Below, piece by piece: positions 161 through 62,567 of a stretch of DNA of 64,000 nt (the first letter of the stretch is position 1; the number at the start of each line of letters is the position of its first letter). Where the stretch lies: positions 1,096 through 65,095 of the forward strand of contig PCYM01000001.1 in the NCBI GenBank assembly GCA_002774875.1. Direction: 5' to 3'. The position numbers and the translations under genes are program-made. This stretch comes from Candidatus Uhrbacteria bacterium CG10_big_fil_rev_8_21_14_0_10_50_16. Lineage in GTDB: Bacteria > Patescibacteriota > Patescibacteriia > UBA9934 > UBA11717. The notes under the pieces were generated by a model. The model had not been told where the DNA came from. It searched no databases and saw only the letters and a list, made by a program, of their open reading frames with translations.

Positions 161-1285
161 ATGTTTACACGCATCAAACAATCCACTATCTCCAAGGCGC
201 GACGCGGGGAACTCGCGACCACACACGGCACTCTACAGACGCCGTTTTTTATGACGATAGCCACCAAGGGTGCGGTGCGTGCCATGAACGTGCGAGATCT
301 CAAACGCATTCATGTTCCCATAGTTCTTGCAAACACGTATCACTTGCTTGTGCGACCAGGTATGGACGCCTTGCGCGAACGTGGAGGATTGCACAAATGG
401 ATGCACTGGGACGGTCCCATGCTCACTGACAGTGGTGGGTACCAAGTGTTTAGTTTGGGACATCGACGCAAGGTGACAGAGGAAGGTGTGACGTTTCGAT
501 CACACATTGATGGAAGTAAAATCTCCCTCACACCCGAGGAGTCGATTGCCATGCAGCAAGCGATTGGATCGGATATGATCATGCAGCTTGATGTTGTTGA
601 ACCACCGACGGTGAGCGATAAACGTCGTGCCTATGCCATGGAGCGATCCATTCGATGGGCCAAGCGTTGCAAGGACTATTTATATGCACATCGGGATCAA
701 TCCGTTACAGCGGATCAAAAACTCTTTGGAATTGTGCAAGGTGGCGTAGATGAAGCGCTGCGCACACGATCCGTTGCGGGTCTCACGGCGTTGGATCTTG
801 ACGGGTACGCCATTGGAGGCCTCTCTGTGGGCGAATCCAAGGAAGACAATTTGCGTATTGCGGCGTTTACGGCAAGCCTCTTACCGCAAGACAAGGTGCG
901 ATATTTTATGGGTGGTGGAATGCCCGAGGAGATTGTTGCCTATGTGCGCATGGGGATCGACATGTTTGATTGCGTGATTCCAACGCGCCACGCACGGCAT
1001 GGGTCACTTTTTGTGTGGAATGGGAATCCGACACCGGAGTTAATCGCGAGCGGAGATTTTTATACAAAAATTAATATCGTGAATGCCGAGTATCGCAACA
1101 GCGATGATCCGATTGATTCATGGAATAATTGCGACGCCTCACAAGCCTACACACGTGGGTATTTGCGACACTTGTTTGGACTCAAAGAGGCACTTGGTAC
1201 GCAATTGGCGACGGAGCATAATGTGCGTTTTTACATGCAATTAATGGAGGTAATCAGACAGGGAATTGAAGAAGGGGTTTTGTAG
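161..1285 (+). CDS. tgt: queuine tRNA-ribosyltransferase
   Basis: The N-terminal region (RARRGEL...HG...TP.FM..T...V) and overall length match Tgt. The ATG at 161 is assumed as the start. Confidence 0.8.
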   Translation: MFTRIKQSTISKARRGELATTHGTLQTPFFMTIATKGAVRAMNVRDLKRIHVPIVLANTYHLLVRPGMDALRERGGLHKWMHWDGPMLTDSGGYQVFSLGHRRKVTEEGVTFRSHIDGSKISLTPEESIAMQQAIGSDMIMQLDVVEPPTVSDKRRAYAMERSIRWAKRCKDYLYAHRDQSVTADQKLFGIVQGGVDEALRTRSVAGLTALDLDGYAIGGLSVGESKEDNLRIAAFTASLLPQDKVRYFMGGGMPEEIVAYVRMGIDMFDCVIPTRHARHGSLFVWNGNPTPELIASGDFYTKINIVNAEYRNSDDPIDSWNNCDASQAYTRGYLRHLFGLKEALGTQLATEHNVRFYMQLMEVIRQGIEEGVL

Positions 1286-1357
1286 GGTGTTTCTGTGGAA
1301 AACTCTTTTTCTTTACAGGGTTGTTTTTGCTATACTGTCGGCATACTTAATCTCTCT

Positions 1358-4300
1358 ATGTTCATCATTCGATCGTTCCCGAAGTATTTAGTTGCTTGTC
1401 TCATTTTGTTATTTTTTGGATTGTTTTTTGGGGTCTTAGACGCCTCCGCCGCAAATAGATATTGGGTGGGAGCTTCTACGACTTTCAACACGACGGGCAA
1501 CTGGTCAACATCAAGCGGTGGCGCAAGCGGAGCGTCTGTTCCGGGTTCCAGCGACATTGCAATTTTTGATGGTGGAAGTGCACAGGCGGTGAGCCTGGAT
1601 GCAACAACGTTGAGCGGTTTAGATATTCAAGCCGCGTACGGTGGAACGGTTACGGCTCCTGCTGGAACACTTATCCTTATGGTGAGTTTTAGTGATGCAG
1701 CTGGTGCCTTTGTGCATAACAATGGAACCGTTCAAATTCGGACTGGCAGTGGTGCATATTTTGATTTTAATAGCAACGCAATTCTTTATAATTTAGTGAG
1801 CTTAAATGGCGCCAATTACGGAAATAGAATGAATACGTTTACCGTAAAGGTTACAGGAACATTAACGCACGGCGATGGAAGTAGCTCTGGAGGTATTTGG
1901 CAGACGGGGACATTACGGGTTGAAGGTGATTTTACTGTTGCGAAACTTGCGGATACTTACCAAATCAATAATGGAACGGGACTGATTCAATTTACGGGTT
2001 CTAATAATCAGTCATTTACTACAACAGACACCACGGACACCTTCGGGGCCCCTGTTGAGGTCAATAAAACAAGTGGAACGCTAACGCTGAATAGTGCGTT
2101 TGATTTTACTGGAGCAAGCATGACGTTCACGGTAACAGCGGGTACCGTAGACATGTCTACCTCCTCCATGACGGATGTATATAATCTTTATATTAACGGT
2201 GGAACCTTTATTCATGGATCTGGGACGTTAACAACAAAGGGGACGACGAATGCCCTGCAGGTGAATGGAGGAACGTTTACGGGAGGATCCGGTGATGTTA
2301 ATTTTGCTTCCGGTGGAGAATTGGAAATAGATAGTGGAACCTTTACGGCTCCAACGGGAAATCTAGCTCTCTCTTCAACACTGCACGTTGCGAGTGCAGG
2401 GGCGACGTTTAACCACAACAATGGAACGATTACATCAACGACATCAACTCACTTGAATATTGAGGTAGAAGGAGGGGTCGGAACGATTACAGTCTATAAC
2501 TTAACGCTTAACAAAGCTGGAGGATATAGTTTGAGTGTAAACGGGAGCTCAACGTTGGTCGTGCAAGGAACTCTTACACGAACGGCGGGACGTTTGAGTG
2601 AATCATCTTCGGCAACGTATCCTTTGCAAATAGAAGGAAATTTGGATTTTGATGCTGTTGAAACAAATGGAACCTCGACTCTTCTCGTGACAGGTTCGGG
2701 AACGCAGACACTCGATTTTGCAGATCCTGCTTCTTGGGATACGAATATCTTTGTGAACAAGTCGGGCGGGTCTGTCTCGTTGCTAACGGGGCTCACATTG
2801 AATGCGGCGAGTAACAATAACCTCACCATTCAAGAGGGGCGATTCAATGTGAATGGTCAGACCTTGTCCGTTGGGGGCACGTTGTCCGTGGAGAGTGGTG
2901 GAGACTACGCCATGACGGGAGACGAATCTGCTCCAGCACCCACGCTGGCTTCTGGCAGTATCGTAACCTATGTTGCAACTTCCGGTGCTCGAACGATTAA
3001 GGACTACGATTACAGTGCTTCAACATTGGCGTTTGATGGAGTTGGTGGGGTGTTTATTATGACCGTTGGAGGTGAAACAGTCGCTAATCTTACGATTACA
3101 AATGGATCGTTCTACCTCAATGGAGACAACCTAACGGTCACGGGAACCTTTTCTAACGACGATACCCTTATTTTGAGTGGTGATGAGACAACCGTCTCCT
3201 ATACAAACGATACAGATTCTGGAACGGTTGAATACAAGGGGGCTGTAACGGCTGCAAGCTTAAAAGGAGGGAATTCGTATTATAATCTTGCCTTTGTAAA
3301 TCCGAGTGGTAGTTGGACGGCGGCCGCTCCCGTTGATATTAATGGGTCACTTACGGTTACATCGGGAACCTTTAATACGGGAGGTTATGCAGTTACGTTG
3401 GCGGGTAATTTTACGAACGCGGCAACGTTTACACAATCGAGCGGGACACTCACCTTGGATGGGACAAATCAGACCCTATCTGGCTCCACAACGTTTTATA
3501 ATCTCACAAAGAATGTTAGCTCGGCGGCAACATTGACGTTTACTGCGGGGCAAACGTTTACCGTGTCGAATAACCTTGATCTTCAAGGAGCGTCCGGACA
3601 AGTCTTATCACTTGTTTCGAGTACGCCGACCACGGCCATTAATATGTCTGCGGCCGGCACGGTAACGGCGCAGTATCTCAACGTGTCAGACAATAACAAT
3701 ACAGGCTCCACGATTAATTGTGTGGTGGGTTGTGTGAAGGGAACCGGGAACACAGGATGGATGTTTGCTTCTTCTGCAACACCTTCCTCTGTGACGTATC
3801 AAGACACGGACGTAGACGGGGTTGTGGACCGTGTCATTATTGATTTTGGTTCGGCTGTTTCGATTGTGGGCACACTTTCTAATACACGCTTTACTTGGGT
3901 GAGTTCAACAGGAGCGAATGGTTTTGGTGGATCATTGACAGGAAACGCTTCCGTTGTTAGTGGAGACGTTGTTATTACAATCACAGGTTCAGAAACAGAT
4001 GATACGAGCCACACAACACAACCAACACTTGCTTATAGCGATAACTCAACAGATGGAACGAATTACATTGCGGATGCAAGCGGTGACCTTATTCTCACGT
4101 TTGGTGCGACAAACGCCGCGGACGGCGCATCACCTATTCTTGTATCTTCTAACCCAGCAGACGCAGACACAAGTGTCGCAAACAATGCAACGATCGCGCT
4201 TACGTTTTCTGAACCAATAAATACGGGAACGTTTGCCTATTCGTGTTGTGGAGTAGGAACAGACCCTGGACGTTCCGGAGTGTGGACAGTGTCTAATACG

Positions 4301-5266
4301 GTCTATACCGTTACCCCAACCGCTAATTGGACAGGAGGAAACACAATTACGATCGACATAACGACATCTGCAGACACAACAGGAAACGCGTTTGGCGGAG
4401 CGGGCTCTGGTGCTACGGATCCATTTACCTTTACAGTCGCACGTAACACGGGTGGGACACCAACACCGGGTGCAGGTCCGGATGCCACGGTAACAACGGC
4501 ACAACTGATAGCACCAAATGGAGGAGAGCAACTTGTGGGCGGGCAGATTGTAACTATTTCTTGGTCGGCGTCGGGTGATAAACTCACAACGATTAAACTC
4601 ACCTACACCCTAGACCAGGGTCGAACCTACAAATTAATCGCGGAGAACGAGGAGAACGATGGAGAATATCGTTGGACCGTTCCAAACATTACAGCAGCTG
4701 CCGTATATGCAAGGGTATCAGGAATCACGACAACAGGAGGGGAGTTGGTAAGCGATGGCTCAAACGCAAACTTTTCCGTCATAGCAAGTGCGGATACACC
4801 AATAGAAAATGTGGATGATATTCCAAGTGTACCAGTTGATACGTCGACACCTGTTGCAATTATGCAGCGTATTGATGGAACGTTTGTAGAATTACGTGCA
4901 GGAAACCTATTCCGCGGAGAGACGTTATCTGGTGTGTACTTGGTGCGCAACGGGAAGCGTTACGTGTTCCCATCTGAGTCCGTCTACTTCTCTTATTACG
5001 ACTCATTTAGCAACATTGTGATGGTGAAGGATAGTCAGTTAAAGGCGTTGGATATTGGTGGACGCGTAACCATGGCGCCCGGGCGGATGATCAAAATTCA
5101 ATCGGATAACCATGTGTATCAAGTGCAGGAAGACGGCACGATCCGTCACATCCCAGACGAGGCAACGGCAAGAAGCCTTTACGGGGACACGTGGAACAAA
5201 CAGATTACCGATATAAATGTGACGTTCTGGTTCGATTATCCACGTGGAGATGCACTAACAACATAA
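1358..5266 (+). CDS. large secreted Thr/Gly/Ser/Asn-rich surface protein with parallel beta-helix-like repeats and an N-terminal signal/TM
   Basis: The track ORF is 1295..5266. An internal ATG at 1358 gives MFIIRSFPKYLVACLILLFFGLFFGVLDASA, a signal-peptide-like N-terminus. There are hundreds of residues of GT.T/NGGT-type repeats, a TATACT -10-like hexamer upstream, and a C-terminal globular region. Confidence 0.55.
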   Translation: MFIIRSFPKYLVACLILLFFGLFFGVLDASAANRYWVGASTTFNTTGNWSTSSGGASGASVPGSSDIAIFDGGSAQAVSLDATTLSGLDIQAAYGGTVTAPAGTLILMVSFSDAAGAFVHNNGTVQIRTGSGAYFDFNSNAILYNLVSLNGANYGNRMNTFTVKVTGTLTHGDGSSSGGIWQTGTLRVEGDFTVAKLADTYQINNGTGLIQFTGSNNQSFTTTDTTDTFGAPVEVNKTSGTLTLNSAFDFTGASMTFTVTAGTVDMSTSSMTDVYNLYINGGTFIHGSGTLTTKGTTNALQVNGGTFTGGSGDVNFASGGELEIDSGTFTAPTGNLALSSTLHVASAGATFNHNNGTITSTTSTHLNIEVEGGVGTITVYNLTLNKAGGYSLSVNGSSTLVVQGTLTRTAGRLSESSSATYPLQIEGNLDFDAVETNGTSTLLVTGSGTQTLDFADPASWDTNIFVNKSGGSVSLLTGLTLNAASNNNLTIQEGRFNVNGQTLSVGGTLSVESGGDYAMTGDESAPAPTLASGSIVTYVATSGARTIKDYDYSASTLAFDGVGGVFIMTVGGETVANLTITNGSFYLNGDNLTVTGTFSNDDTLILSGDETTVSYTNDTDSGTVEYKGAVTAASLKGGNSYYNLAFVNPSGSWTAAAPVDINGSLTVTSGTFNTGGYAVTLAGNFTNAATFTQSSGTLTLDGTNQTLSGSTTFYNLTKNVSSAATLTFTAGQTFTVSNNLDLQGASGQVLSLVSSTPTTAINMSAAGTVTAQYLNVSDNNNTGSTINCVVGCVKGTGNTGWMFASSATPSSVTYQDTDVDGVVDRVIIDFGSAVSIVGTLSNTRFTWVSSTGANGFGGSLTGNASVVSGDVVITITGSETDDTSHTTQPTLAYSDNSTDGTNYIADASGDLILTFGATNAADGASPILVSSNPADADTSVANNATIALTFSEPINTGTFAYSCCGVGTDPGRSGVWTVSNTVYTVTPTANWTGGNTITIDITTSADTTGNAFGGAGSGATDPFTFTVARNTGGTPTPGAGPDATVTTAQLIAPNGGEQLVGGQIVTISWSASGDKLTTIKLTYTLDQGRTYKLIAENEENDGEYRWTVPNITAAAVYARVSGITTTGGELVSDGSNANFSVIASADTPIENVDDIPSVPVDTSTPVAIMQRIDGTFVELRAGNLFRGETLSGVYLVRNGKRYVFPSESVYFSYYDSFSNIVMVKDSQLKALDIGGRVTMAPGRMIKIQSDNHVYQVQEDGTIRHIPDEATARSLYGDTWNKQITDINVTFWFDYPRGDALTT

Positions 5267-5291
5267 GACTACCCACACCCCCGTTGCTGCA

Positions 5292-5714
5292 GTGTTCGGG
5301 GGTTTTGGTATACTGTACCTATTGCAAATCAATCGTATGGCGCAGCCACTGGTGGTACAAGCAGCAAAGCTTTTTTTGGTCGACCTCGTGGGCGGCGTTT
5401 TAGGGTTTCCGGTTTGGTGGTATTCCAAAGGGGTTGTGCGCTGGTCGCGTTTTATGTGGGATTGGTATGAGACCTATCGTGCAACATTGGCCGTGGATGT
5501 GTGGGTGAAGAACTGGTTTGTTCCCATGTACGGGTCTTATGATATCCCCGGTCGTTTGATTAGTTTTTTTATGCGTACCGTGATGATTGTTTTGCGCTCC
5601 CTGCTACTGCTTTTAGTGAGTTGTCTGATGATCATCATATACTGCATCTACTTCATTCTACCTCCGATCGTTGTTGTTGCAATTGTCTATAACGCTTACG
5701 GACTGTTTCTCTAG
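5292..5714 (+). CDS. hypothetical multi-pass membrane protein
   Basis: A 140 aa ORF with several hydrophobic helices, ending 2 nt before the clpC-like start, so probably co-transcribed. Confidence 0.4.
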   Translation: MFGGFGILYLLQINRMAQPLVVQAAKLFLVDLVGGVLGFPVWWYSKGVVRWSRFMWDWYETYRATLAVDVWVKNWFVPMYGSYDIPGRLISFFMRTVMIVLRSLLLLLVSCLMIIIYCIYFILPPIVVVAIVYNAYGLFL

Positions 5715-5716
5715 GT

Positions 5717-8455
5717 ATGGAAGAACAAAAAGATGTACAACCAAATGAGACGGACTTACTGGTAAATCTTCCGTTTATCTCGGCAAGTGAAGACCGCCCG
5801 CATGATTTTGGTGTCCTCGTGGACAATACGTTCTTTGTTTGGAATGATCGATTAGACATTGGCTCCAGAAAACTTCGAAAGGCAAAACGGTCCGTTGATG
5901 CGTTTATTACGTTTATAGCGATTCTTGTGACAGGCATCTGTTTTGCACTCTTTTTGGTATCAACGTTTGTTTTGTTGCCTCCAAGTGTTTGGCAGGCACT
6001 GCCGTTTTGGACGGATCCTTCCTCGGTGCAATTGTTATTGTGGCTGACGGTTGCAGGAGTTATGTATGTGGCTTATCGCCGAGCTCTGGCAAAACGTGAG
6101 CCTCAGGAATCTGGCGCACGTGTTGATGTATCGCTTCACCCACTACAAACCACTTGGGAGGCGGCAAAGGAGATGCAGGATAAACCATGGGTGGATATTG
6201 GATCTCGTTGTACACAAGAGGCATGGAAGGGGTTAGAGGACGCTGCGTTACTGGCAGAGCGTCTTAGCCATCGCTACGTGGGGCTTTTGCATGTGTTTGC
6301 AGGCCAGCTTTCGCAACCAAGCGTTGGTCATTTATTCGCACGTCTTGGAATAAACTTTGATCAAATTAAGGATTCGCTTACCCATAAACTCGCGGAGTAT
6401 CCAAAAGCACAACCTGGCGAGGCAATGGCGGATCGTTTGGATCCCTTGGGTCAGCGTGCCATCTTGGGTGCAGCCGTACACGCGGCGATGCACGGGCGGA
6501 CCGTTATTACTCCGGTGGATGTATTTGTGAGTACCTACCGTAACTCGCCATTTTTGCAGGAGTTATTCTATGGTGTGGATATCAAAGAGGAGGCGATGGA
6601 GAACGTGCTGGCGTGGTTACAAATACGAGAAAATCTTCGTGCGCGGTGGCAGATGTTTAGAAAGGCAAGTTTTCTTAAACCGACGGGGAACATGAACCGA
6701 TCCATGACGGCCGTGGCGACCCCCTTGCTTGATCGTGTCAGTACGGATCTTACGTCGCAGGCGGCGCGAGCGGGGTTACCTATGTTGATCGGTCGTGAGA
6801 CAGAGATGGAGCGTGTGTTACGAGTTTTTGAAAGTGGTGGACGGAGCGTCGTGCTGGTGGGACAACCGGGAATCGGCAAACAAGCAATCATAGACGGAAT
6901 CGCGGAACGGATGGTAAAAGAAGACGTTCCCGATTTACTAAAGGATCGACGGCTCGTAAGTATTGACGTAGGACGGCTTGTGGCGGGTGCCACGCCAGCG
7001 CAGGCGGAGGAGCGTTTATTGTTGGCGTTAAATGAAGTTGGACGTTCCGGAAACATTGCGCTTGCGATTCCCAATATCGACGATTTGGTAGGTATTACGG
7101 CGGGCAGTGCGCAAAGCCTTGATTTGTCCTCGTTGCTCGCACAGGAATTGGAGAAAGGATATTTTGTACTCATTGCCACTACGACACCAGCGGCGTACAG
7201 AGATGCCATTGAAGGTTCTGCCTTGGCCAGTAGCCTTACGAAGGTAGATTTGGACGAGCCAAATAAAAATGAGGCGATTCAGATTATTGAGGCAAAGGTT
7301 GGAAAGCCTGAGGCAGAGCAGGGGGTATTGTTCTCGTATGAGGCGGTTGAGGCGCTTGTGGATCTAACCGCGCGGTATTTGCATGACCAATTCTTGCCGG
7401 ATAAGGCCATACGCCTCATGGAGGAGACAGCCCTCATGGTAAAGCAGAGTCGAGGATTAGGTGCAACGATTACCAAGCAAGATGTTGCCCAAATTGTGTC
7501 GGTAGCTGCCAAGGTTCCATTAACCGCGGTTTCTCAGGATGAAAAAGAAAAACTCCTCGCCCTAGAGGTAAATCTACATACGCGAGTGATTGGTCAATCA
7601 GAGGCAGTGAACATGGTGTCGGCGGCGTTGCGTCGTGCGCGTGCGGAAATGCGCTCTGGCCGACGTCCAATTGCTAACTTCTTGTTTTTGGGTCCAACGG
7701 GAGTCGGTAAAACAGAGCTTTCAAAAGCCATCGCGGCAACCTACTTTGGTAATGAGGAGGCTATGGTGCGTTTGGATATGTCGGAGTATCAGGATTCATC
7801 GAGTATCCACAGACTCATTGGCGTACCAGGTTCGCGACAAGGCGGATTGTTTACCGAGGCGGTGCGCAAGCAACCGTTTGGACTCATTTTGTTAGATGAG
7901 TTGGAAAAGGCGCATCCAGAAATTTTGAATGTTTTTTTGCAGGTATTTGACGATGGACGGCTTACAGATGCAGCGGGCCGAACGGTCGATTTTACGCAAA
8001 CAATTATTGTCGCCACGTCCAATGCGGGGTCTCAGTATATTCAGGAACAGGTTAAACAAGGAACGCCGATGGATCAAATTAAGACGCACCTCATGGAAGA
8101 GGAGTTATCGCAGTATTATCGACCAGAGTTTTTGAACCGGTTTGATGGCGTGGTGGTCTTTACGCCGCTGACCATGGAGGATGTGATGGCTATTGCAGGG
8201 CTTATGCTCGGTGGCGTCCGAAAGCGATTGGATGACAAGGGGATTGTGTTTACGGTGTCTGATGCGGCACTTAAAGAGCTTGCGGTGGCCGGTTATGATC
8301 CGCAGTTTGGGGCACGTCCTCTGCGCCGTGTGATTCAAGAAAAAGTCGAAGACCCACTTGCAACCTTGTTATTGGAAGGGAAGGTAGGGAGACGCGATAC
8401 AGTGGTATTGGATGCAGGTGGGGAAATGCGTGTCGATAAAGCACCGGCGCTATGA
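5717..8455 (+). CDS. ClpC/ClpB-family AAA+ unfoldase with an N-terminal extension of about 150 aa containing two hydrophobic helices
   Basis: Clp_N repeats are present (…AALLAERLSHRYVGLLHVFAG). Two Walker A sites are present (VLVGQPGIGKQ and FLFLGPTGVGKTE), and the Clp signature region follows. The unusual part is the N-terminal TM-like extension. Confidence 0.8.
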   Translation: MEEQKDVQPNETDLLVNLPFISASEDRPHDFGVLVDNTFFVWNDRLDIGSRKLRKAKRSVDAFITFIAILVTGICFALFLVSTFVLLPPSVWQALPFWTDPSSVQLLLWLTVAGVMYVAYRRALAKREPQESGARVDVSLHPLQTTWEAAKEMQDKPWVDIGSRCTQEAWKGLEDAALLAERLSHRYVGLLHVFAGQLSQPSVGHLFARLGINFDQIKDSLTHKLAEYPKAQPGEAMADRLDPLGQRAILGAAVHAAMHGRTVITPVDVFVSTYRNSPFLQELFYGVDIKEEAMENVLAWLQIRENLRARWQMFRKASFLKPTGNMNRSMTAVATPLLDRVSTDLTSQAARAGLPMLIGRETEMERVLRVFESGGRSVVLVGQPGIGKQAIIDGIAERMVKEDVPDLLKDRRLVSIDVGRLVAGATPAQAEERLLLALNEVGRSGNIALAIPNIDDLVGITAGSAQSLDLSSLLAQELEKGYFVLIATTTPAAYRDAIEGSALASSLTKVDLDEPNKNEAIQIIEAKVGKPEAEQGVLFSYEAVEALVDLTARYLHDQFLPDKAIRLMEETALMVKQSRGLGATITKQDVAQIVSVAAKVPLTAVSQDEKEKLLALEVNLHTRVIGQSEAVNMVSAALRRARAEMRSGRRPIANFLFLGPTGVGKTELSKAIAATYFGNEEAMVRLDMSEYQDSSSIHRLIGVPGSRQGGLFTEAVRKQPFGLILLDELEKAHPEILNVFLQVFDDGRLTDAAGRTVDFTQTIIVATSNAGSQYIQEQVKQGTPMDQIKTHLMEEELSQYYRPEFLNRFDGVVVFTPLTMEDVMAIAGLMLGGVRKRLDDKGIVFTVSDAALKELAVAGYDPQFGARPLRRVIQEKVEDPLATLLLEGKVGRRDTVVLDAGGEMRVDKAPAL

Positions 8456-41708: not shown

Positions 41709-42200
41709 ATGGAAAAACCATCAGGAATCACATTAGTGGAGGGCCTCATTATTGGAGGGATCTTCTGTATTTTGTTGTTTGCAACAGGAATCTCGTTGTC
41801 GGCGGCGCGTGAGCGTGTGCGTGATTATAAGCGTATTTCCGATGTTTCGCGCGTACAGGCGGCATTGGAGCTGTACTACAATGAACAAAATCAGTATCCA
41901 AAGACGGAAGGGAAGATTGCTCTTGGAAACGGTGGGGCGCTCTGTTTGAGTAGCTCTGGGTTCCAGCCAACGTGCTCGTCTACGGGTCGTGTGTTTTTAA
42001 ATCCTGTGCCAAGTCAGACGGGCATCGGGTTGGGGGGATCGGACTTGCAGGTCTATGCGTATGAGAGTGATGGAGAGAATTACGTGATTTCTTTGGTGAT
42101 CGAGCGGGCGATTCCTCAGGTGGCTATTGAGAAAGGGTTGGTGTGCGCGCGTCCTGGGTCGCCTATTCAGGCGTCGGCAAGCGGCGTGTGCGCGCTTTAG
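41709..42200 (+). CDS. type IV pilin / pseudopilin (prepilin-type N-terminal methylation domain)
   Basis: It has a class III signal (MEKPSG-ITLVEGLIIGGIF) with Glu at +5, and two Cys near the C-terminus. Confidence 0.7.
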   Translation: MEKPSGITLVEGLIIGGIFCILLFATGISLSAARERVRDYKRISDVSRVQAALELYYNEQNQYPKTEGKIALGNGGALCLSSSGFQPTCSSTGRVFLNPVPSQTGIGLGGSDLQVYAYESDGENYVISLVIERAIPQVAIEKGLVCARPGSPIQASASGVCAL

Positions 42201-42204
42201 GCAA

Positions 42205-42232
42205 TTTGTGCTCAACTGATCGTAAGAGACAG
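42205..42232 (+). terminator. rho-independent terminator after the pilin gene
   Basis: The sequence is ACAGGC-TTGAC-AGGCCTGTTTTTTT. Confidence 0.5.
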
Positions 42233-42428
42233 GCTTGACAGGCCTGTTTTTTTGTTGTATGTTTGGTGGGCGACAATCCGTTGCACGAGGAGACTGGCAT
42301 GGCCCTGAACCCCTACACGCCGCCCCCCAAGGTGGACGGCCCCGAGTCGCGCGCGAGCGTGCGCGACTACCCTCGTCCTCGTCACGGGCAGGTCCTCGAC
42401 CTGCCCGTGGAGGTTCCCTCCAACGGGG

Positions 42429-43721
42429 GTGAGCTCAAGCCGGCGACGGCCTGAGCTCGCTCTACCCCCCCACGCGGTCTTCGGGCTGCACTTCTACGAC
42501 CGGCGCCTGGAACCTCAGGACGCCGGCCTCGTACGTTCATGCGCAACGCAGAAAGAGCGGAAGATGAAGTCGGACATTGCAGATGTAAACTTGCAGAAGT
42601 TGTATGAGGCACTGGAAGCAGCGCTGAGAAACGCGGGTGTTGCAGACAAGATTTCCGTGGCAACGTCGTTGAGGGCGTTTGTGGATACTGTGGACGAATT
42701 GGCGGTCGAGCGTGGCCAGTTACTTGCTGCGCTGGAGCACGCCACCACCGATTCGGTTACGGGACTGCTGAGATCTGACCAATGGCGTCAGCAACTCGCC
42801 ATGGCGCTCAGGCAGGCATTGGGAGAAGCGGCGATCGTGCCCATCCTCGATGGTATGTTCCCGCTTGCGGCGGCCCGGATGGTGGGGTTAAAGGATGTGG
42901 TCAGAAGTGTCGTCCTTGCGACGTTTGACGTTCGTGCGTTGGACTATACCAACGCGCTGCTAGGCTATGCCGCGGGCAGCGAGATGCTGACGCTGTGTGC
43001 ACAGACGGCGGCGACGGTGTTGGACGAGTTCCTCTCCTCCTACGGGATGCAGCGGAGAACCAGTGTTCGCGACCCTCTGTGGCTGTGTTCACTCACACGG
43101 ACCGGCGGCGATGAATTCCGTGCGGTCTTGGTTGGTCAGGCGGCCACGCGTTGGCGCGACGTGCGCGACGGACTGTTCATGCGTCTGAGCGAGGAAGAAG
43201 TGCCGGGGCTCGACATCCCGCCCGCGATGGCATCCGGTGCCATGTCCATGCACGTCTTGCTCTGGTACGTGGGCGCGTTCTATCGGTGGCGGGGCCTGTC
43301 TCTGCCCACCGACAGGGAGGAGATCATCACGCTCGCCATTCAACTGTGGTGTGCCTTCACGGAGGCGCGCGCAGATGCACAGCGGGTGGTGGAATACGGT
43401 CTCCTGTTTGCCGATGCGTGGGACGATGACCCTGTAAAGCGCGAGCGGTTCGATCGGTGGATGTCCACCAAGTTGATGGCCTCGGCCTTCAATGGACGAA
43501 CTCTGGATGAGGTGCACAACCTGTGCCGAAGCGCGTCCATGTGTCTGAAGGCAGACGACACCAAGGGTGCCAAGGCGGTGTTCGTGCACGATCACGATGA
43601 TCGTATGCGTGTTCACTTCAACATCCTCCTGGCCAAGGCGCGGGCGCTGCAAGAAGAAAACATCCGTCTCCGGCTCGAGATCTTCGTGATCTCCAATGAG
43701 TTCGAGTTTCCTATCCCCTAA
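42429..43721 (+). CDS. GGDEF-domain protein (putative diguanylate cyclase) with an uncharacterised C-terminal extension of about 180 aa, on a GC-rich segment
   Basis: D-SVTGLLRSDQWRQQL matches the D.LTGL.NR entry motif of GGDEF domains. FDVRALDYTNALLGYAAGSEML corresponds to the D.D.FK..ND..GH..GD block, and LTRTGGDEFRAVLVG is an intact GGDEF active site. The segment 42230-43720 is about 60-70% GC against a local background of about 50%. The start is uncertain; ATG 42564 (MKSDIADV) is an alternative. Confidence 0.6.
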   Translation: MSSSRRRPELALPPHAVFGLHFYDRRLEPQDAGLVRSCATQKERKMKSDIADVNLQKLYEALEAALRNAGVADKISVATSLRAFVDTVDELAVERGQLLAALEHATTDSVTGLLRSDQWRQQLAMALRQALGEAAIVPILDGMFPLAAARMVGLKDVVRSVVLATFDVRALDYTNALLGYAAGSEMLTLCAQTAATVLDEFLSSYGMQRRTSVRDPLWLCSLTRTGGDEFRAVLVGQAATRWRDVRDGLFMRLSEEEVPGLDIPPAMASGAMSMHVLLWYVGAFYRWRGLSLPTDREEIITLAIQLWCAFTEARADAQRVVEYGLLFADAWDDDPVKRERFDRWMSTKLMASAFNGRTLDEVHNLCRSASMCLKADDTKGAKAVFVHDHDDRMRVHFNILLAKARALQEENIRLRLEIFVISNEFEFPIP

Positions 43722-43810
43722 GGGGAATCAACGTCGAGGGGCTCCGGCCCCTCATTCATTTTGTTAAAAAGCGTCTATCCTAACCGCTCAAACTTTGCTA
43801 AACTACCCCT

Positions 43811-46614
<2,804 letters not shown>

Positions 46615-51901: not shown

Positions 51902-52081
51902 TTTTCCCCTCTATCAAAAAAGAAAATGCAATTTGCATTTTATTGTAAAACAAAGGACTTTGCCCGTAAAAGGAAAAGTATACTTCATTTACCGTGTGCG
52001 AGTATACGATGTTTGCGTAGCAAATATTGGTGAAGCGTAGCGGAACTGCATACACGCAATTGTGTGATGGCGCGGAAATTT

Positions 52082-52345
52082 TTATCCATTTTTTTCGTAT
52101 TTTATTTTTACTACCAACTGAGCAAGTGTCACTAAAAAATTAAACCCATCCCCAAGTAGCACCGGGAGGCTATTTATCATATAACCATAAATTGCCCAAA
52201 GGCCGGTAGCAAAAAAATAGATAACAATCATGAAGAACGAAACATCCTTTACGCTTTTTGTTGTAATGGACTTGATAAATTGAGGAACCATGTGAATGGC
52301 TCCAAGCAGCGCTGCCGAGAATCCTACTATTTCTATTGTTGACAT
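52082..52345 (-). CDS. SemiSWEET / PQ-loop family sugar transporter (3-TM)
   Basis: This 87 aa protein has three hydrophobic helices and a PQ motif in helix 1 (HMVPQFIKSITTKS). It is colinear with known bacterial SemiSWEETs. Confidence 0.65.
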   Translation of the reverse strand: MSTIEIVGFSAALLGAIHMVPQFIKSITTKSVKDVSFFMIVIYFFATGLWAIYGYMINSLPVLLGDGFNFLVTLAQLVVKIKYEKNG

Positions 52346-52585
52346 AGTTTTACATTCTTGAAACCAAGAACCAAAAATTAAAATTAATTTGGCGATATTT
52401 TGCTACCGCAAAATTAAAAAACTTTTCATTACATCGCACAACGTGCCGCGGCACGTTAGCCAACGAGCAAAGCGATGTTGGCTAACATTCCAACATATAC
52501 AATATCTAAACAGGGTAAAATGTACACGAAGTGCTTACCACTGGCAAACATGGGTGGAGGCATGCGGAGGTACGGAGCAAGCCGT

Positions 52586-52640
52586 AACCGCATACGCAGT
52601 GTTAGTTGATGTATTCCTTTTCTTTTGTTCCGCCATCGGT
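52586..52640. repeat. copy of the terminator/promoter module repeat (family also at 60936-61006 and 62350-62472)
   Basis: A shared core ...CAGTGTTAG(T/C)TGATGTATTCCTTTTCTTTTGTTCCGCCATCGG... is present, containing a short GC hairpin. Confidence 0.5.
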
Positions 52641-52831
52641 ATCGCAACCGTGGCAATCGATGCGAACAACTGTTTCTGACATCTCTTCCTCCTTCGATCC
52701 CACTATTTTGGGGGATTCAGAGCTTGTTTGGCGTGCTAATTTTTTCAAGAATATAGCCTTTTGTCAATGCATGAGCTTTGTGACCGGAGCTTCATTGTTT
52801 CTTCATCAATTCTCCGCTACACTCACACGGT

Positions 52832-60057: not shown

Positions 60058-60303
60058 ATGTACACTGTGTATGTTTTGCGAAGTCTTACATCCGGGAAAC
60101 GATATATTGGTTATACGGCAAAGGCTGTTCAAGAAAGACTCTTGGACCACCATAGCGGTACGAATCAATGGACAAGGGCTCACAGACCCTTTGAAATAAT
60201 TCATTGCGAAACGTACCAGGACAAGAAATTCGCCATACAACGTGAACGCTTTTTAAAAAGTGGAAGCGGAAGGCGGTGGTTGGACGACAACATTCCGAGG
60301 TAG
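60058..60303 (+). CDS. GIY-YIG nuclease-domain protein (small stand-alone URI-domain type)
   Basis: YTVYVLRSLTSGKRYIGYT...RLLDHHSG...W.R...PFEIIHCETY...A...ER.LK matches the GIY-YIG fold. Its stop overlaps the first nucleotides of tRNA-Asn. Confidence 0.65.
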   Translation: MYTVYVLRSLTSGKRYIGYTAKAVQERLLDHHSGTNQWTRAHRPFEIIHCETYQDKKFAIQRERFLKSGSGRRWLDDNIPR

Positions 60304-60368
60304 CTCAGTGGTAGAGCAGTTGACTGTTAATCAATTGGTCGTGGGTTCGAGCCCCACCCTCGGAGCCA
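60294..60368 (+). tRNA. tRNA-Asn (anticodon GTT)
   Basis: The cloverleaf folds by hand. The acceptor is TCCGAGG/CCTCGGA, the D stem GCTC/GAGC, the anticodon loop CTGTTAA, and the T arm GTGGG-TTCGAGC-CCCAC. CCA is encoded. Confidence 0.85.
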
Positions 60369-60465: not shown

Positions 60466-61056
60466 ATGTCTGAACACCCTGAAAGAGCTCCTGACATTGT
60501 TCGGGAACAAAGTAAGAAGGAACGGTACGAACTCACTTCGGCCAACGGTGAAGTTATCGGATCTGTGGAAGCAGAATATGGGACTATATTGGGTGATGAT
60601 ATCGATTTGACTTATAATGCCCACGCTTTTGACGATCCATCAAATATTGTGAGGTTGCAGCGCCTGACAGTTGAGTCCGCTGATGGAGACAAGGTGGATA
60701 TTTTTGACCTCCTTAAAGCTGATACGAGCAAGGTTTTAATAATCAATGACTATAAATATGTCGAATGTTCTCACGAGGGAGTTGTGTATATAGTCAAGCC
60801 GAGCTCATTATTGCGACTATTGACAACTCTTCATGAACTTGGTCATTTGGAGCAAATAGTTGATGAGAAAACCGCTTCCGCAATAGAGATGCGAAAACTA
60901 AATGCGACGCAAGTAGGGTTGGTGGAGAAGAACGAGTTAGCTGATGTATTCCTTTTCTTTTTTGGGCTATCGCCCAATTGTTTTAAAAAATTTTCAAATT
61001 TCTTTTCGCAGCACATCCCGATAAAAAGAAGAGCCGCCCACCAGATGAGCCAGTAG
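60466..61056 (+). CDS. hypothetical protein with an HExxH (HELGH) motif, possibly an ImmA/IrrE-like metallopeptidase
   Basis: It is AT-rich and contains LTTLHELGHLEQ. The last 40 or so codons are encoded by repeat sequences (60936-61073), so the true C-terminus is doubtful. Confidence 0.35.
   Translation: MSEHPERAPDIVREQSKKERYELTSANGEVIGSVEAEYGTILGDDIDLTYNAHAFDDPSNIVRLQRLTVESADGDKVDIFDLLKADTSKVLIINDYKYVECSHEGVVYIVKPSSLLRLLTTLHELGHLEQIVDEKTASAIEMRKLNATQVGLVEKNELADVFLFFFGLSPNCFKKFSNFFSQHIPIKRRAAHQMSQ
60936..61006. repeat. terminator/promoter module repeat, copy A
   Basis: The sequence is GTTAGCTGATGTATTCCTTTTCTTTTTTGGGCTATCGCCCAATTGTTTTAAAAAATTTTCAAATTTCTTT. It matches 62392-62472 in inverted orientation and 52595-52640. 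Confidence 0.5.
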
Positions 61057-61073
61057 GCGGCTCGTGGTGGACG
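61028..61073 (-). terminator. conserved 46-nt hairpin terminator (minus strand), copy 1
   Basis: GCCGCCCACCA...TGGTGGACGG forms a hairpin, followed on the minus strand by TCTTCTTTTTAT. It is nearly identical to 61782-61827. Confidence 0.5.
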
Positions 61074-61084
61074 GCTAGGTTGGA

Positions 61085-61597
61085 TTAGTCGTCATCCTCG
61101 TTGTATGTGTTGCTCACCGGCATCAACATGAAGCTCTCGAGCCGCGAGAGCTCTTCGTAGGAAGCCTCATCGGTGGGCCACTCCGGATCTTCCTTGCCGG
61201 TACGCAGCCACCGGCTGAGAGTGTGTTCAAGATGGTACAGCATCATGCGCTCACCATCGCCCTTGCAGTTGTACAGGTACCACCGCCAGCCGGTGCTAAA
61301 GACGGACAGAAGCTCCTGCATCTCCAGCAGCCAGTTCATCAGCCGGGTGATGGCCAGGTGGCGCGAAGCGATGTTGTCGTCCAGATCCTGCGCGAGCGAC
61401 TCGACGATGAAATCCGGGGCGTTGCCCTCGCCGGTGATCGTGGGGGTGAAGTCCCACGTGCCCTCGGCGAGCTCGCGCCTCGGGTTGAGAGGCGTGAGCC
61501 GAACGTAGAGATGACTCTCACCTTCCACCAGACCGGCGAAGGCGCTCTTGTCGGGATTGCCGAGCGTGATGACTCGACCACTTTCGATGGCGCTCAT
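61085..61597 (-). CDS. hypothetical acidic protein (GC-rich cargo gene)
   Basis: This 170 aa ORF is about 60% GC. GGAGGTG lies 4 nt upstream of the ATG, and a conserved terminator sits 10 nt after the stop. Plus-strand ORFs over the same DNA look like low-complexity antisense frames. Confidence 0.4.
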   Translation of the reverse strand: MSAIESGRVITLGNPDKSAFAGLVEGESHLYVRLTPLNPRRELAEGTWDFTPTITGEGNAPDFIVESLAQDLDDNIASRHLAITRLMNWLLEMQELLSVFSTGWRWYLYNCKGDGERMMLYHLEHTLSRWLRTGKEDPEWPTDEASYEELSRLESFMLMPVSNTYNEDDD

Positions 61598-61781
61598 TTA
61601 CACCTCCATGAGGAGACGTGAGTGTTCGGCTGTACCCGCCGTGGGTTGCGTTCCGTAAAAGGAAACGACGCTAAAATATAGTCCATTTTATAAAAGTAGT
61701 CAATAGAAGCTCGCCAAAAAAGGCATTTTTTGCGAATTTATGTACACTTGACGCACGGCGGCGGCGCGACGAAAAGAAATT

Positions 61782-61827
61782 AAGAGCCGCCCACCAGATG
61801 AGCCGGTAGACGACTCGTGGTGGGCGG
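61782..61827 (-). terminator. conserved 46-nt hairpin terminator (minus strand), copy 2
   Basis: CCGCCCACCA-N21-TGGTGGGCGG is a perfect 10-bp stem, followed on the minus strand by TCTTAATTTCTTTTCG. Confidence 0.5.
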
Positions 61828-61842
61828 TACAGATGGAGTGCT

Positions 61843-62262
61843 TCACTCCGCGAGTTCGACACTCCGAACCATGAAGGGACGGGATCCGGTGTAATGCTGT
61901 TCTGCGAGACTCGCCACCTGGCACAGCACGTTGACCCTCGTACCCTCCTGGAGCATCGCACTGGAGGGATCGCTGCCCAGATGCTTCTCGAACCGCGGAG
62001 GGTAGATCGGAGCAGGATCTCGCCAGTAAGTGAGTGCTGCCAGCGAGTCTGGATGATGCGGATGGTGTCGTCTGATGACCGCCTTGACGGTCTCCAGATC
62101 GAGCTCGACGATGATCGTGTATGTCTCCGGAATGGGTTCGAAGATCTGGAAGCCGAAGACCGAGAACCCGGATCTTGCCGGATATGTCTTCACACCGATG
62201 ATCTTCCCAGGGATGGTGACCTTCGAGCCGCTGGCCTGAGGCGCGAATCTTGGGGTCTGCAT
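61843..62262 (-). CDS. hypothetical protein (GC-rich cargo gene)
   Basis: The start is at MQTPRFAPQ, with AGGAGG 6 nt upstream. A sigma70-like promoter, TTGACT-16-TATATT, lies on the minus strand at 62323-62350. The conserved terminator follows the stop. Confidence 0.4.
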   Translation of the reverse strand: MQTPRFAPQASGSKVTIPGKIIGVKTYPARSGFSVFGFQIFEPIPETYTIIVELDLETVKAVIRRHHPHHPDSLAALTYWRDPAPIYPPRFEKHLGSDPSSAMLQEGTRVNVLCQVASLAEQHYTGSRPFMVRSVELAE

Positions 62263-62322
62263 ACGACCTCCTGTTCTGAATGTCACGGCTGTCCCTGCCG
62301 TAGGGGTCGAAAGCGACATTAA

Positions 62323-62350
62323 AATATACTCTATTCAGAAAAAAAGTCAA
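62323..62350 (-). promoter_or_regulatory. sigma70-like promoter (TTGACT-N16-TATATT) inside repeat copy B, driving the 61843..62262 gene
   Basis: On the minus strand the sequence reads TTGACTTTTTTTCTGAATAGAGTATATTTTA. Confidence 0.45.
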
Positions 62351-62472
62351 TGGTCGCCCAATATCTCGGACATATGTATAATGAAAGAAATTTGAAAATT
62401 TTTCAAAACAAGTCCCGCCGATGGCGGAACAAAAGAAAAGGAATACATCAGCTAACACTGGCTATGCGGTTC
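62350..62472. repeat. terminator/promoter module repeat, copy B (inverted relative to copy A)
   Basis: On the minus strand the sequence reads ...CGCATAGCCAGTGTTAGCTGATGTATTCCTTTTCTTTTGTTCCGCCATCGGCGGGACTTGTTTTGAAAAATTTTCAAATTTCTTTC..., followed by the promoter. Confidence 0.5.
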
Positions 62473-62567
62473 CGTTTCACTACACCCATATTTGCTTTCA
62501 CTTCGCTACAGCAAACATCGCATAGCCAGAAACGTTTTCAGAAGTTTCAAGACTTCAACGTCGTTAC

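Follow-up and report, generated by a model that had tools for sequence, protein, structure and literature searches.

What kind of element is the short repeat that occurs at 52.6, 60.9 and 62.4 kb in a 64,000-nt stretch of contig PCYM01000001.1 from Candidatus Uhrbacteria bacterium CG10_big_fil_rev_8_21_14_0_10_50_16? Candidate phyla radiation (CPR; Patescibacteria) bacteria account for a large share of bacterial diversity and have tiny genomes, and how they shuffle defence and accessory genes is poorly understood. An earlier reading of this stretch (hereafter the window), made from the sequence alone, took the repeat for a portable unit of bidirectional terminator and promoter in a cassette-like region. 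We consider it probable that the repeat is the conserved “arm” of integron-like cassette borders that occur across the CPR/Patescibacteria. The family has a common anatomy and array organisation, its stems are paired by Watson-Crick rules, and it is linked to a tyrosine recombinase gene; recombination itself we infer to occur at a palindromic module, here termed M2, that adjoins the arm.

The element is read on the + strand of its 62.4-kb copy (c3). When the window was scanned at ≤3 mismatches and the three sites were read directly, a 20-nt core (AAAAGAAAAGGAATACATCA) gave exactly three matches, at 52607-52626 (-; copy c1), 60942-60961 (-; c2) and 62431-62450 (+; c3), against 0.01 expected from shuffled sequence. 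The recurrence described in the sequence-only reading is therefore genuine, and the core extends to 26 nt, AAAAGAAAAGGAATACATCA(G/A)CTAAC, at 52601-52626 (-), 60936-60961 (-) and 62431-62456 (+). This 26-nt B-box is identical in c2 and c3. A 28-nt A/T-rich A-box, AAAGAAATTTGAAAATTTTT(C/T)AAAACAA, is found only at 60978-61005 (-) and 62384-62411 (+), with one mismatch between the two copies. Between the boxes lies a hairpin whose sequence differs and whose pairing is kept: CCGCC GAT GGCGG in c3 (full halves GTCCCGCC GAT GGCGGAAC) and TTGGGC GATA GCCCAA in c2. Copy c1 retains the 3' half of the c3 hairpin type, its A-box and hairpin 5' half having been replaced by unrelated sequence with a 26-codon open reading frame (ORF), so that its hairpin cannot form; the claim that the hairpin arms differ between copies and stay complementary thus holds for c2, c3 and the related family but fails for c1. 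The 26-codon ORF (MSETVVRIDCHGCDTDGGTKEKEYIN; 52603-52683, -) has a strong GGAGG site and spans the truncation junction, with the B-box as its last 12 codons; it is probably fortuitous. The likeness between c1 and c3 runs for ~100 nt further outward of the B-box, into a palindromic site (52480-52604 -, 62453-62540 +), and a repeat finder also matched the c3 tail to 52019-52052; the repeat is therefore longer and more modular than first described.

Species-representative genomes scanned with an A-rich 20-mer yielded at least 120 loci. At least 102 of these carry the extended core, with 121 complete arms among them; the 18 of 120 without the strict 26-nt pattern are mostly chance matches, and a few (e.g., L020, L045, and L088) hold the element with variant cores. 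The hosts are more than 90 uncultured CPR genomes. The records are overwhelmingly metagenome-assembled genomes (MAGs) of Patescibacteria/CPR (Peregrini-, Magasanik-, Uhr-, Falkow-, Moran-, Sacchari-, and Parcubacteria, among others) and include complete ~1-Mb chromosomes, five of which (L017, L026, L045, L063, and L106) have one 8-kb block each among the matches listed. The few archaeal or proteobacterial labels are on short contigs or automatically labelled assemblies. Contigs binned as archaeal (5-26 kb; L003 and L090, Woesearchaeota; L019, Altarchaeum; L072/L113, Methanoregula; L100, Methanosarcinales) look like CPR arrays and are either mis-binned or the product of real cross-domain transfer, which bears on published reports of archaeal integrons in MAGs. 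The earlier proposal of a portable module bordering small accessory genes in cassette-like regions is borne out in these other genomes, where the arms border no fewer than 100 distinct gene units.

The loci share an architecture. It begins with a co-oriented upstream gene, the stop codon of which directly precedes a long G+C-rich hairpin (M0). The arm itself comprises the A-box (GGAAAAAGAAATTTGAAAATTTTTTAAAACAA), a freely varying but always-paired hairpin, and the B-box (AAAAGAAAAGGAATACATCAGCTAACA) ending in GCTAAC. The M2 module (~100 nt) consists of a 10-11-bp stem P1, then GGTTACGG-hairpin-CCTCCACCCATATTTGC-loop-GCAAACATC, the complementary P1', and RAAC/GTTRYRYGAAAT, and a co-oriented gene lies downstream of it. 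The 26-nt core AAAAGAAAAGGAATACATCAGCTAAC and the M2 model can each serve as a signature of the family.

A covariance model (R1), built from an alignment of 26 M2 sites and applied at E<1e-3 to 100 related loci (684 kb), detected 190 M2 sites. Of the 53 loci that contain more than one site, 51 have them all on a single strand; the spacing of sites has a median of 1201 nt (range 188-5866), and ORFs of ≥100 amino acids (aa) between sites are co-oriented with them at a ratio of 137:6. The window contains such an array only in miniature, as two M2 sites around a SemiSWEET gene. Within an inter-M2 segment, the first and the last 24 nt can pair with each other at a median of 17.5/24 positions (≥19 in 28 of 54 pairs), whereas the ends that face each other across one M2 are at the random level (10.9/24 vs 11.3). 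The inverted repeats therefore delimit the cargo-bearing segment, and M2 connects one such segment to the next.

A cassette carries 1-4 accessory genes and is flanked by a pair of inverted-repeat arms, one of which ends in ...ACATC-NNNN-AAC while the other starts with GTT-NNNN-GAAAT.... Of the arm families present, that made of A-box, hairpin, and B-box is the most frequent and the most strongly conserved. Arms of “type 1” lie 3' of co-oriented genes; those of “type 2” mark the 5' side of the unit on the opposite strand, are preceded by a small hairpin and CACCTTATTCCCCTCTATAAT, and mostly contain the hairpin TTGGGCGATAGCCCAA followed by a reverse-oriented M2. Copy c2 has this hairpin variant and is 92-98% identical over 71-76 nt (blastn) to the type-2 arms of L005, L072, L021, L102, and L029. 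In gene orientation, a typical unit reads M2 / GTTAGCTGAAATATTCC...(reversed arm)...promoter region, 1-4 genes, M0, arm ...CAGCTAAC / M2. The arrangement is clearest in L114, where a recombinase gene faces away from the first gene, which ends in a full arm and M2; the single-gene cassettes that follow (SnoaL-like, GNAT, SnoaL-like) start with GTTRYRCGAAAT and end with ACATCGNNYAAC, each then followed by an M2-type site. Across the family the cargo is of accessory and defence type with mixed G+C content (GC), including HpaII-type and other restriction-modification systems, GmrSD, an AbiEii-like ATPase, Fic, a Na/Ca exchanger, GNAT, and SnoaL-like proteins.

M2, or its inner part alone, occurs in both orientations between the same flanks. 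At L051 4207-4309 and beside many type-2 arms, M2 or the part between the P1 arms is inverted with the flanks unchanged, an outcome that would be expected of recombination between inverted AAC/GTT half-sites or P1 arms.

The stems appear to be maintained as DNA. RNAalifold predicted 24 pairs for the 26 aligned M2 sites; 21 of them have compensatory double changes, and one-sided changes are almost absent. Arm hairpin pairs were Watson-Crick in 331 cases, G·T in 10 and A·C in 12; for P1 the corresponding counts were 652, 3, and 10. Double changes with hardly any G·U intermediates, together with independence of orientation, agree with selection that acts on palindromic DNA (hairpin or cruciform), not on a sense-strand RNA.

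Of the ~100 8-kb loci with the element, 13 encode a tyrosine recombinase of 270-286 aa; apart from it, ORF clustering revealed no single partner gene family in the element loci. Nine of the 13 have a complete arm upstream of the recombinase gene and on its strand, with 78-282 nt from the GCTAAC end to the start codon. The arm thus separates this gene from the divergent first unit, as attI and the promoters do in integrons. The protein passes the cut-off of NF040815 (NCBIfam “XerA/integron integrase”) and matches TIGR02249 (integron integrase) in two pieces and below the cut-off. Its best solved relatives are archaeal XerA (4A8E and 5HXY), then Vibrio IntIA (2A3V); it aligns to VchIntIA residues 4-179 and 252-317, skipping 180-251, and has the C-terminal IKSPL(D) in common with IntIA.

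We posit the following mechanism. M2 and its flanking AAC/GTT half-sites would fold out of single-stranded or supercoiled DNA, and the XerA/IntI-like tyrosine recombinase encoded at the array head would recombine the folded sites, such that cassettes could be inserted, excised, inverted, and exchanged as in an integron. The arm hairpin with its T-run, and the TATAAT before many A-boxes, may additionally serve the unit as insulator and outward promoter. More tentatively, the CPR/Patescibacteria may possess an integron-type capture system of their own, with long-inverted-repeat cassettes in chromosomal arrays, a conserved three-way-junction M2, an XerA/IntI-like recombinase without the IntI-specific domain, and a nearly invariant arm of 70 nt that acts as recombinase-gene leader, insulator, and promoter at once.

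Several observations weigh against integron-like borders. Only 17 of 192 sites fit RYYYAAC and 26 of 192 fit GTTRRRY. P1 is perfectly paired, with no extrahelical bases, and the M2 interior and the A- and B-boxes are conserved in sequence, unlike integron attC sites, which points to an extra function. The IntI-specific domain is missing from the recombinase, as the skipped VchIntIA segment indicates, and the recombinase frequency in the element loci is ~5-8 times a background of 1-2 genes per Mb that was assumed, not measured. No tyrosine recombinase is encoded in the window (1-64000) or in the next 9.4 kb of the contig. No recombination event was observed, and no structural variants of the window locus were found, five independent assemblies being identical. 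Where units are shared between genomes, the breakpoints are at the 5' (GCTAAC) side of M2, unlike the classical attC crossover, and homologous exchange within the B-box could give the same result. Finally, the distribution derived from the 20-mer scan is a lower bound and possibly biased.

The alternative that survives best is that the repeat is an expression chassis only, a portable set of transcription signals (insulating terminator hairpin, bidirectional promoter region, hairpins at mRNA ends) that spreads with accessory genes by ordinary horizontal transfer and by homologous recombination between the invariant boxes, with no part for a dedicated site-specific system; we regard this as rather unlikely. 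The hairpins do score as terminators, and they do so solely in the direction that points into the flanked unit: by the criterion of a G+C-rich hairpin followed by a T-run, a consensus scan identified c2 on the + strand (60962-60977, then TTGTTTTAAA) and c3 on the - strand (62430-62412, then TTGTTTTGAA). The same scan found no signal in the opposite directions of c2 and c3 and none in c1, which lacks the hairpin, so the bidirectional terminator of the sequence-only reading is not upheld. Such hairpins could insulate the unit from outside transcription; the cargo genes of the window end at separate terminators, not at the arm hairpins. As to promoters, the TTGACT-16-TATATT element and the AGGAGG ribosome-binding site assigned to the 62.4-kb copy are both real, and both lie outside the repeated sequence. 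The same promoter recurs before the other gene of the cargo, at 61703->61675, and belongs to this GC-rich cargo, not to the repeat. Sigma-70 hexamers were not found inside the repeat in all copies. TATAAT immediately precedes the A-box of c3 (62378-62383) and is present in 16 related type-2 copies, 5-7 nt upstream of the A-box, a conservation that a chassis would explain; it is absent from c2 and c1.

Exchange between genomes is also compatible with an expression chassis. Five pairs of loci have long near-identical segments. In three of them (L017/L065, L029/L058, and L043/L071) the shared unit runs through the arm and ends right after GCTAACAC, whereupon different M2 sites follow; the switch to a different M2 thus falls precisely where the invariant B-box stops, which is what homologous exchange predicts. 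The L089/L111 pair has a transporter gene in common that is headed by a type-2 arm in one of the genomes and has a plain 5' end in its partner. These comparisons show modular reassortment at the element; taken alone, they cannot distinguish site-specific exchange from homologous exchange in the invariant boxes. The use of the same arms with different cargo and of one unit with different M2 sites, the inverted M2 sites, and the assembly breaks inside c2 and c3 also count, as indirect signs, in favour of integron-like borders. The assemblies without rearrangement likewise agree with a chassis. However, it leaves unaccounted for the strict one-strand arrays of M2 with their ~1-kb spacing, the cassette-specific 24-nt inverted ends, the conserved AAC/GTT flanks with an asymmetric 1-nt/4-nt spacer, and the linkage of the arm to a tyrosine recombinase gene. 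Furthermore, M2 has no T-run and occurs in both orientations, and c1 keeps its B-box and M2 yet has no hairpin. The part of the earlier claim that concerns a terminator-like hairpin stands for one direction. As to the primary role, the strongest signals (co-oriented arrays, cassette-specific inverted repeats, strictly Watson-Crick palindromes, and the linked recombinase) point away from transcription and towards a DNA recombination site.

Quite unlikely, in our view, is a family of non-autonomous transposons that are bounded by inverted repeats, insert beside M2, and owe their mobility to a transposase gene elsewhere or to the tyrosine recombinase in that role. Inverted arms around units of 1-4 genes would suit such elements, as would “empty” units that consist of arms only and a MITE-like insertion (MITE, miniature inverted-repeat transposable element) inside one M2; the last, in L086 (~6700-6830), is ~130 nt long, with terminal repeats GGCTGTCTAA.../...TTAGACAGCC and ACGGCA duplicated at both ends. 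In the loci themselves neither target-site duplications nor genes for a transposase were observed, and the flanks are always M2 sites in direct orientation, which is the product of site-specific recombination between M2 sites. The difference between such transposons and integron-like cassettes lies mainly in the enzyme.

A structured non-coding RNA, in which arm and M2 would form a cis-regulatory leader, a 3' untranslated region element, or a small RNA transcribed from the TATAAT or from the tail of an upstream operon, is very unlikely. The arm is always in a transcribed position (3' of co-oriented genes or of TATAAT), it precedes the recombinase gene in the manner of a leader in nine loci, and the covariation is very strong. 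Against this, essentially no G·U intermediates occur, G·T being as rare as A·C on the sense strand; M2 is found in both orientations relative to the arm; and candidate small ORFs are not conserved. Rfam 15 returned only tRNAs at gathering score for the window and twelve related loci, and nothing credible at E≤10 for full-length copies. A chance likeness or a single local duplication in this genome, as three to four copies in 64 kb with two less than 1.5 kb apart might suggest, has negligible probability given the 0.01 matches expected, the more than 100 copies (at least 102 loci) with the same architecture elsewhere, and the different hairpin and M2 subtypes of the window copies; the outcome that the sequence-only reading named as its refutation, three copies alone from one duplication, is thus clearly not what is seen.

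Other candidates were considered and rejected. Known RNA classes (riboswitch, T-box, hammerhead and other ribozymes, tRNA-like end, HEARO/omega RNA, bridge RNA, retron, template of a diversity-generating retroelement, and spacer) had no Rfam match. Genes for reverse transcriptase, TnpB, and IS110 are absent from the surroundings, and the copies do not differ in an A-to-N manner. A small conserved peptide (MAEQKKRNTS..., ...KEKEYIS*) is readable across the core, but c2 is frameshifted or stopped, and since hairpin length varies across the family by non-multiples of three, small ORFs through the core are not conserved. A phage or plasmid origin was rejected because the core had no match in 2.9 million viral contigs and a full-length copy had none in the PLSDB plasmid and INPHARED phage collections.

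If the repeat is the arm of integron-like cassettes, the window is best read as two small, recombinase-less, partly decayed loci of this type (Table 1). Locus A (51.9-52.7 kb) consists, in minus-strand order, of the truncated arm c1, an M2, an empty cassette, the SemiSWEET cassette, a second M2, and a degenerate type-2 arm that abuts the end of an aminotransferase gene. The degenerate arm has blastn matches to the type-2 promoter/arm regions of L072, L095, and L001, and to L115. R1 detected three M2 sites in the window, two of them in Locus A, and both of these fold no better than shuffled sequence; the M2 of c1 is 94-95% identical in its 5' half to copies in L026, L061, and L097, and decayed in its 3' half by C->T changes. 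This long-loop variant of M2 (also in L026, L039, L097, L110, and others) contains a promoter-like TTGCCA-17 nt-..ATTATAC directed towards the downstream cassette, possibly an outward promoter within the site. The SemiSWEET cassette is bounded by GTTGTGCGATG... at its 5' end and ...CATCACACAAT at its 3' end, and its 5' arm recurs at 98% identity on a different (radical-SAM) cassette in L086. Empty cassettes, with paired arms GTT..GAA - short loop - TTC..AAC, were also observed in L026 (~4130-4410, -), L039 (~1265-1450), and L101 (~300-380), some of them enclosed by additional palindromes; loss of cargo may have left them behind.

Table 1. Elements of the proposed cassette type in the window, with coordinates and supporting details.
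Feature	Position	Strand	Details
c3, complete arm	62384..62456	+	A-box 62384-62411; hairpin 62412-62430 GTCCCGCCGATGGCGGAAC; B-box 62431-62456 ending GCTAAC
c2, complete inverted arm	60936..61005	-	A-box 61005-60978; hairpin 60977-60962; B-box 60961-60936
c1, truncated arm	52601..52639	-	B-box 52626-52601 and hairpin 3' half (to 52639)
Degenerate type-2 arm, fourth copy	51902..51986	+	CCCCTCTATC, decayed A-box, hairpin, B'; reads towards site 51987-52062
Intact M2	62453..62540	+	R1 81.8 bits, E 4.6e-22; DNA fold z-score -4.26
M2 of c1, long-P3 type	52480..52604	-	R1 48.1 bits; fold z-score -0.49
Decayed M2 3' of SemiSWEET cassette	51987..52062	-	R1 40.5 bits; fold z-score +0.15
Decayed M2 remnant outside c2	60850..60935	-	GCTAAC/TCGTTCTT CTCCACCAACCCTACTTGC GTC GCA...; read from sequence
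Empty cassette, arms only	52486-52455 (element 52443..52486)	-	GTTAGCCAAC...GTTGGCTAAC; read from sequence
Minimal 12-nt palindrome 3' of empty cassette	52454-52443	-	GTGCCGCGGCAC
Single-gene SemiSWEET/PQ-loop cassette	52059..52442	-	gene 52345-52082; Pfam match; GC 0.367
Cargo between inverted arms	61006..62383	-	two unrelated GC-rich genes; GC 0.566 vs window 0.489
Cargo gene 1	61085-61597	-	170 aa; promoter 61703->61675; terminator 61063->61031
Cargo gene 2	61843-62262	-	139 aa; promoter 62350->62323; terminator 61816->61784

Locus B (60.9-62.55 kb) consists of the inverted arms c2 and c3 around a 1.38-kb GC-rich cargo of two genes, with one intact M2 on the right side and only an M2 relic to the left of c2. 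The layout of the intact site is TAAC-A, an 11-bp stem P1 (CTGGCTATGCG/CGCATAGCCAG), the inner junction CACCCATATTTGC...GCAAACATC, and then GAAAC/GTT. The relic was undetected by R1, so its limits are approximate. It lies inside a mechanical ORF (60466-61056, +; 196 codons), also a gene call in public assemblies, that spans the relic, all of c2, and 50 nt more; its C-terminal ~60 codons are therefore probably no genuine coding sequence. Comparison of the two cargo proteins found no paralogy, and neither contains a Pfam domain. Each of the two genes has its own TTGACT-16/17-TATATT promoter and its own GAGCCGCC...GGCGGCTC terminator.

The locus comes after a tRNA-Asn gene (60294-60368) and the 196-codon ORF that runs into c2; it starts ~100 nt past the tRNA, the first bases of which are overlapped by an 81-codon GIY-YIG ORF (60058-60303). 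Its layout is repeated with other cargo in L034 (type-2 arm, same terminator, reverse GC-rich gene, type-1 arm, M2), and L035 and L087 have its left part only (type-2 arm and the same terminator hairpin). This conserved terminator, GAGCCGCC..GGCGGCTC with a T-run, was observed in the window at 61031-61063 and 61784-61816 (-), in L034 at 1249-1294, in L087 at 159-204, and in L035 at ~3075-3100. In the latter three loci it stands beside type-2 arms, with cargo that is other than in the window, likewise GC-rich, and reverse-oriented in L034 and L087 (in L087, an M23-peptidase-like ORF). Elsewhere in the window, a 2-kb stretch (42001-44000) has a GC of 0.586 against 0.489 window-wide. The window locus is assembled identically in several ENA, JGI, and Logan samples, and contigs from other samples end at 60948, 60974, 62359, and 62428, which is inside c2 and c3; the element may explain assembly breaks at such places.

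The full-text literature searched (Patescibacteria, Parcubacteria, and Saccharibacteria) contained no description of integrons in CPR bacteria or of the core itself, and the element, which looks like an integron relative, is apparently undescribed. If the more tentative reading, a capture system of the CPR's own, is correct, no earlier cassette platform would have been described for this superphylum, the folded-DNA recombination site would belong to a structural class that is new, and the window would hold two decayed outposts of the system. A recognisable border element would make the CPR accessory gene pool mappable in metagenomes, and the arrays would offer a candidate recombinase/site pair for in vitro work. 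If the mechanism holds, folded-DNA cassette recombination would extend past classical integrons to a recombinase without the IntI-specific domain, which bears on the origin of integrons from Xer-type recombinases.

Among known systems, intrinsic terminators resemble the arm in that a short G+C-rich stem is followed by TTGTTTT(A/G)AAAAATTTT on one strand, as flagged in c2 and c3; they differ in that the arm hairpin acts in one direction at most and is absent from c1, and in that the boxes are conserved far beyond what termination needs. Repetitive extragenic palindromes (REPs), the REPINs associated with RAYT transposases, and MITEs are likewise conserved multi-copy intergenic palindromes located just 3' of genes, with compensatory changes in their hairpins. 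These elements fit poorly, however: REPs are species-specific, dispersed, and linked to HUH (Y1) transposases, whereas the present element is superphylum-wide, clustered, and linked to a tyrosine recombinase, and the sequences flanking one M2 are not inverted repeats of each other.

The second-closest analogues are the Xer-dependent dif modules (pdif of Acinetobacter plasmids; IMEX), in which gene modules are bounded by inverted sites and served by Xer-type recombinases; the recombinase here is closest to XerA. With M2 extruded, the flanks would form CATCAGCTAAC / A+RAAC / GTTAGCTGATG, an 11 / 5-6 / 11 dif-like core; the arms CATCAGCTAAC and GTTAGCTGATG are both present, with ~100 nt of M2 between them. 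The simple 28-bp duplex site of dif type (generally 28-30 bp, two 11-bp inverted arms around a central 6-8 bp, bound by Xer recombinases) has no 100-nt palindrome like the one here, and whereas pdif sites are on plasmids and alternate in orientation, M2 sites are co-oriented and chromosomal, with no plasmid match.

The closest system is the integron, especially sedentary chromosomal integrons and the recombinase-less attC clusters known as CALINs, although membership in this group is not established. The recombinase differs from integron integrases in lacking the IntI-specific domain, and M2 differs from attC in its three-way-junction form, its conserved interior, and the perfect pairing of its 10-11-bp stem, its asymmetry being provided by a 1-nt versus a 4-nt spacer and not by extrahelical bases. 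The inverted repeats of the cassettes are 24-100 nt long here, which places one half of the long palindrome ahead of the cargo; many cassettes hold several genes and bring promoters of their own; and the hosts are CPR bacteria, a group without an integron report in the literature searched. In common with integrons, short cassettes are arrayed in co-orientation, and the palindromes between them are structured, imperfectly conserved, and flanked by ...AAC and GTT...; each cassette has a 5' end complementary to the beginning of the 3' site that belongs to it; a tyrosine recombinase of Xer/IntI lineage is encoded at the array head and transcribed divergently; and the cargo includes GNAT, SnoaL-like, restriction-modification, and toxin-type genes. 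The arrays without a recombinase, as in the window, resemble CALINs.

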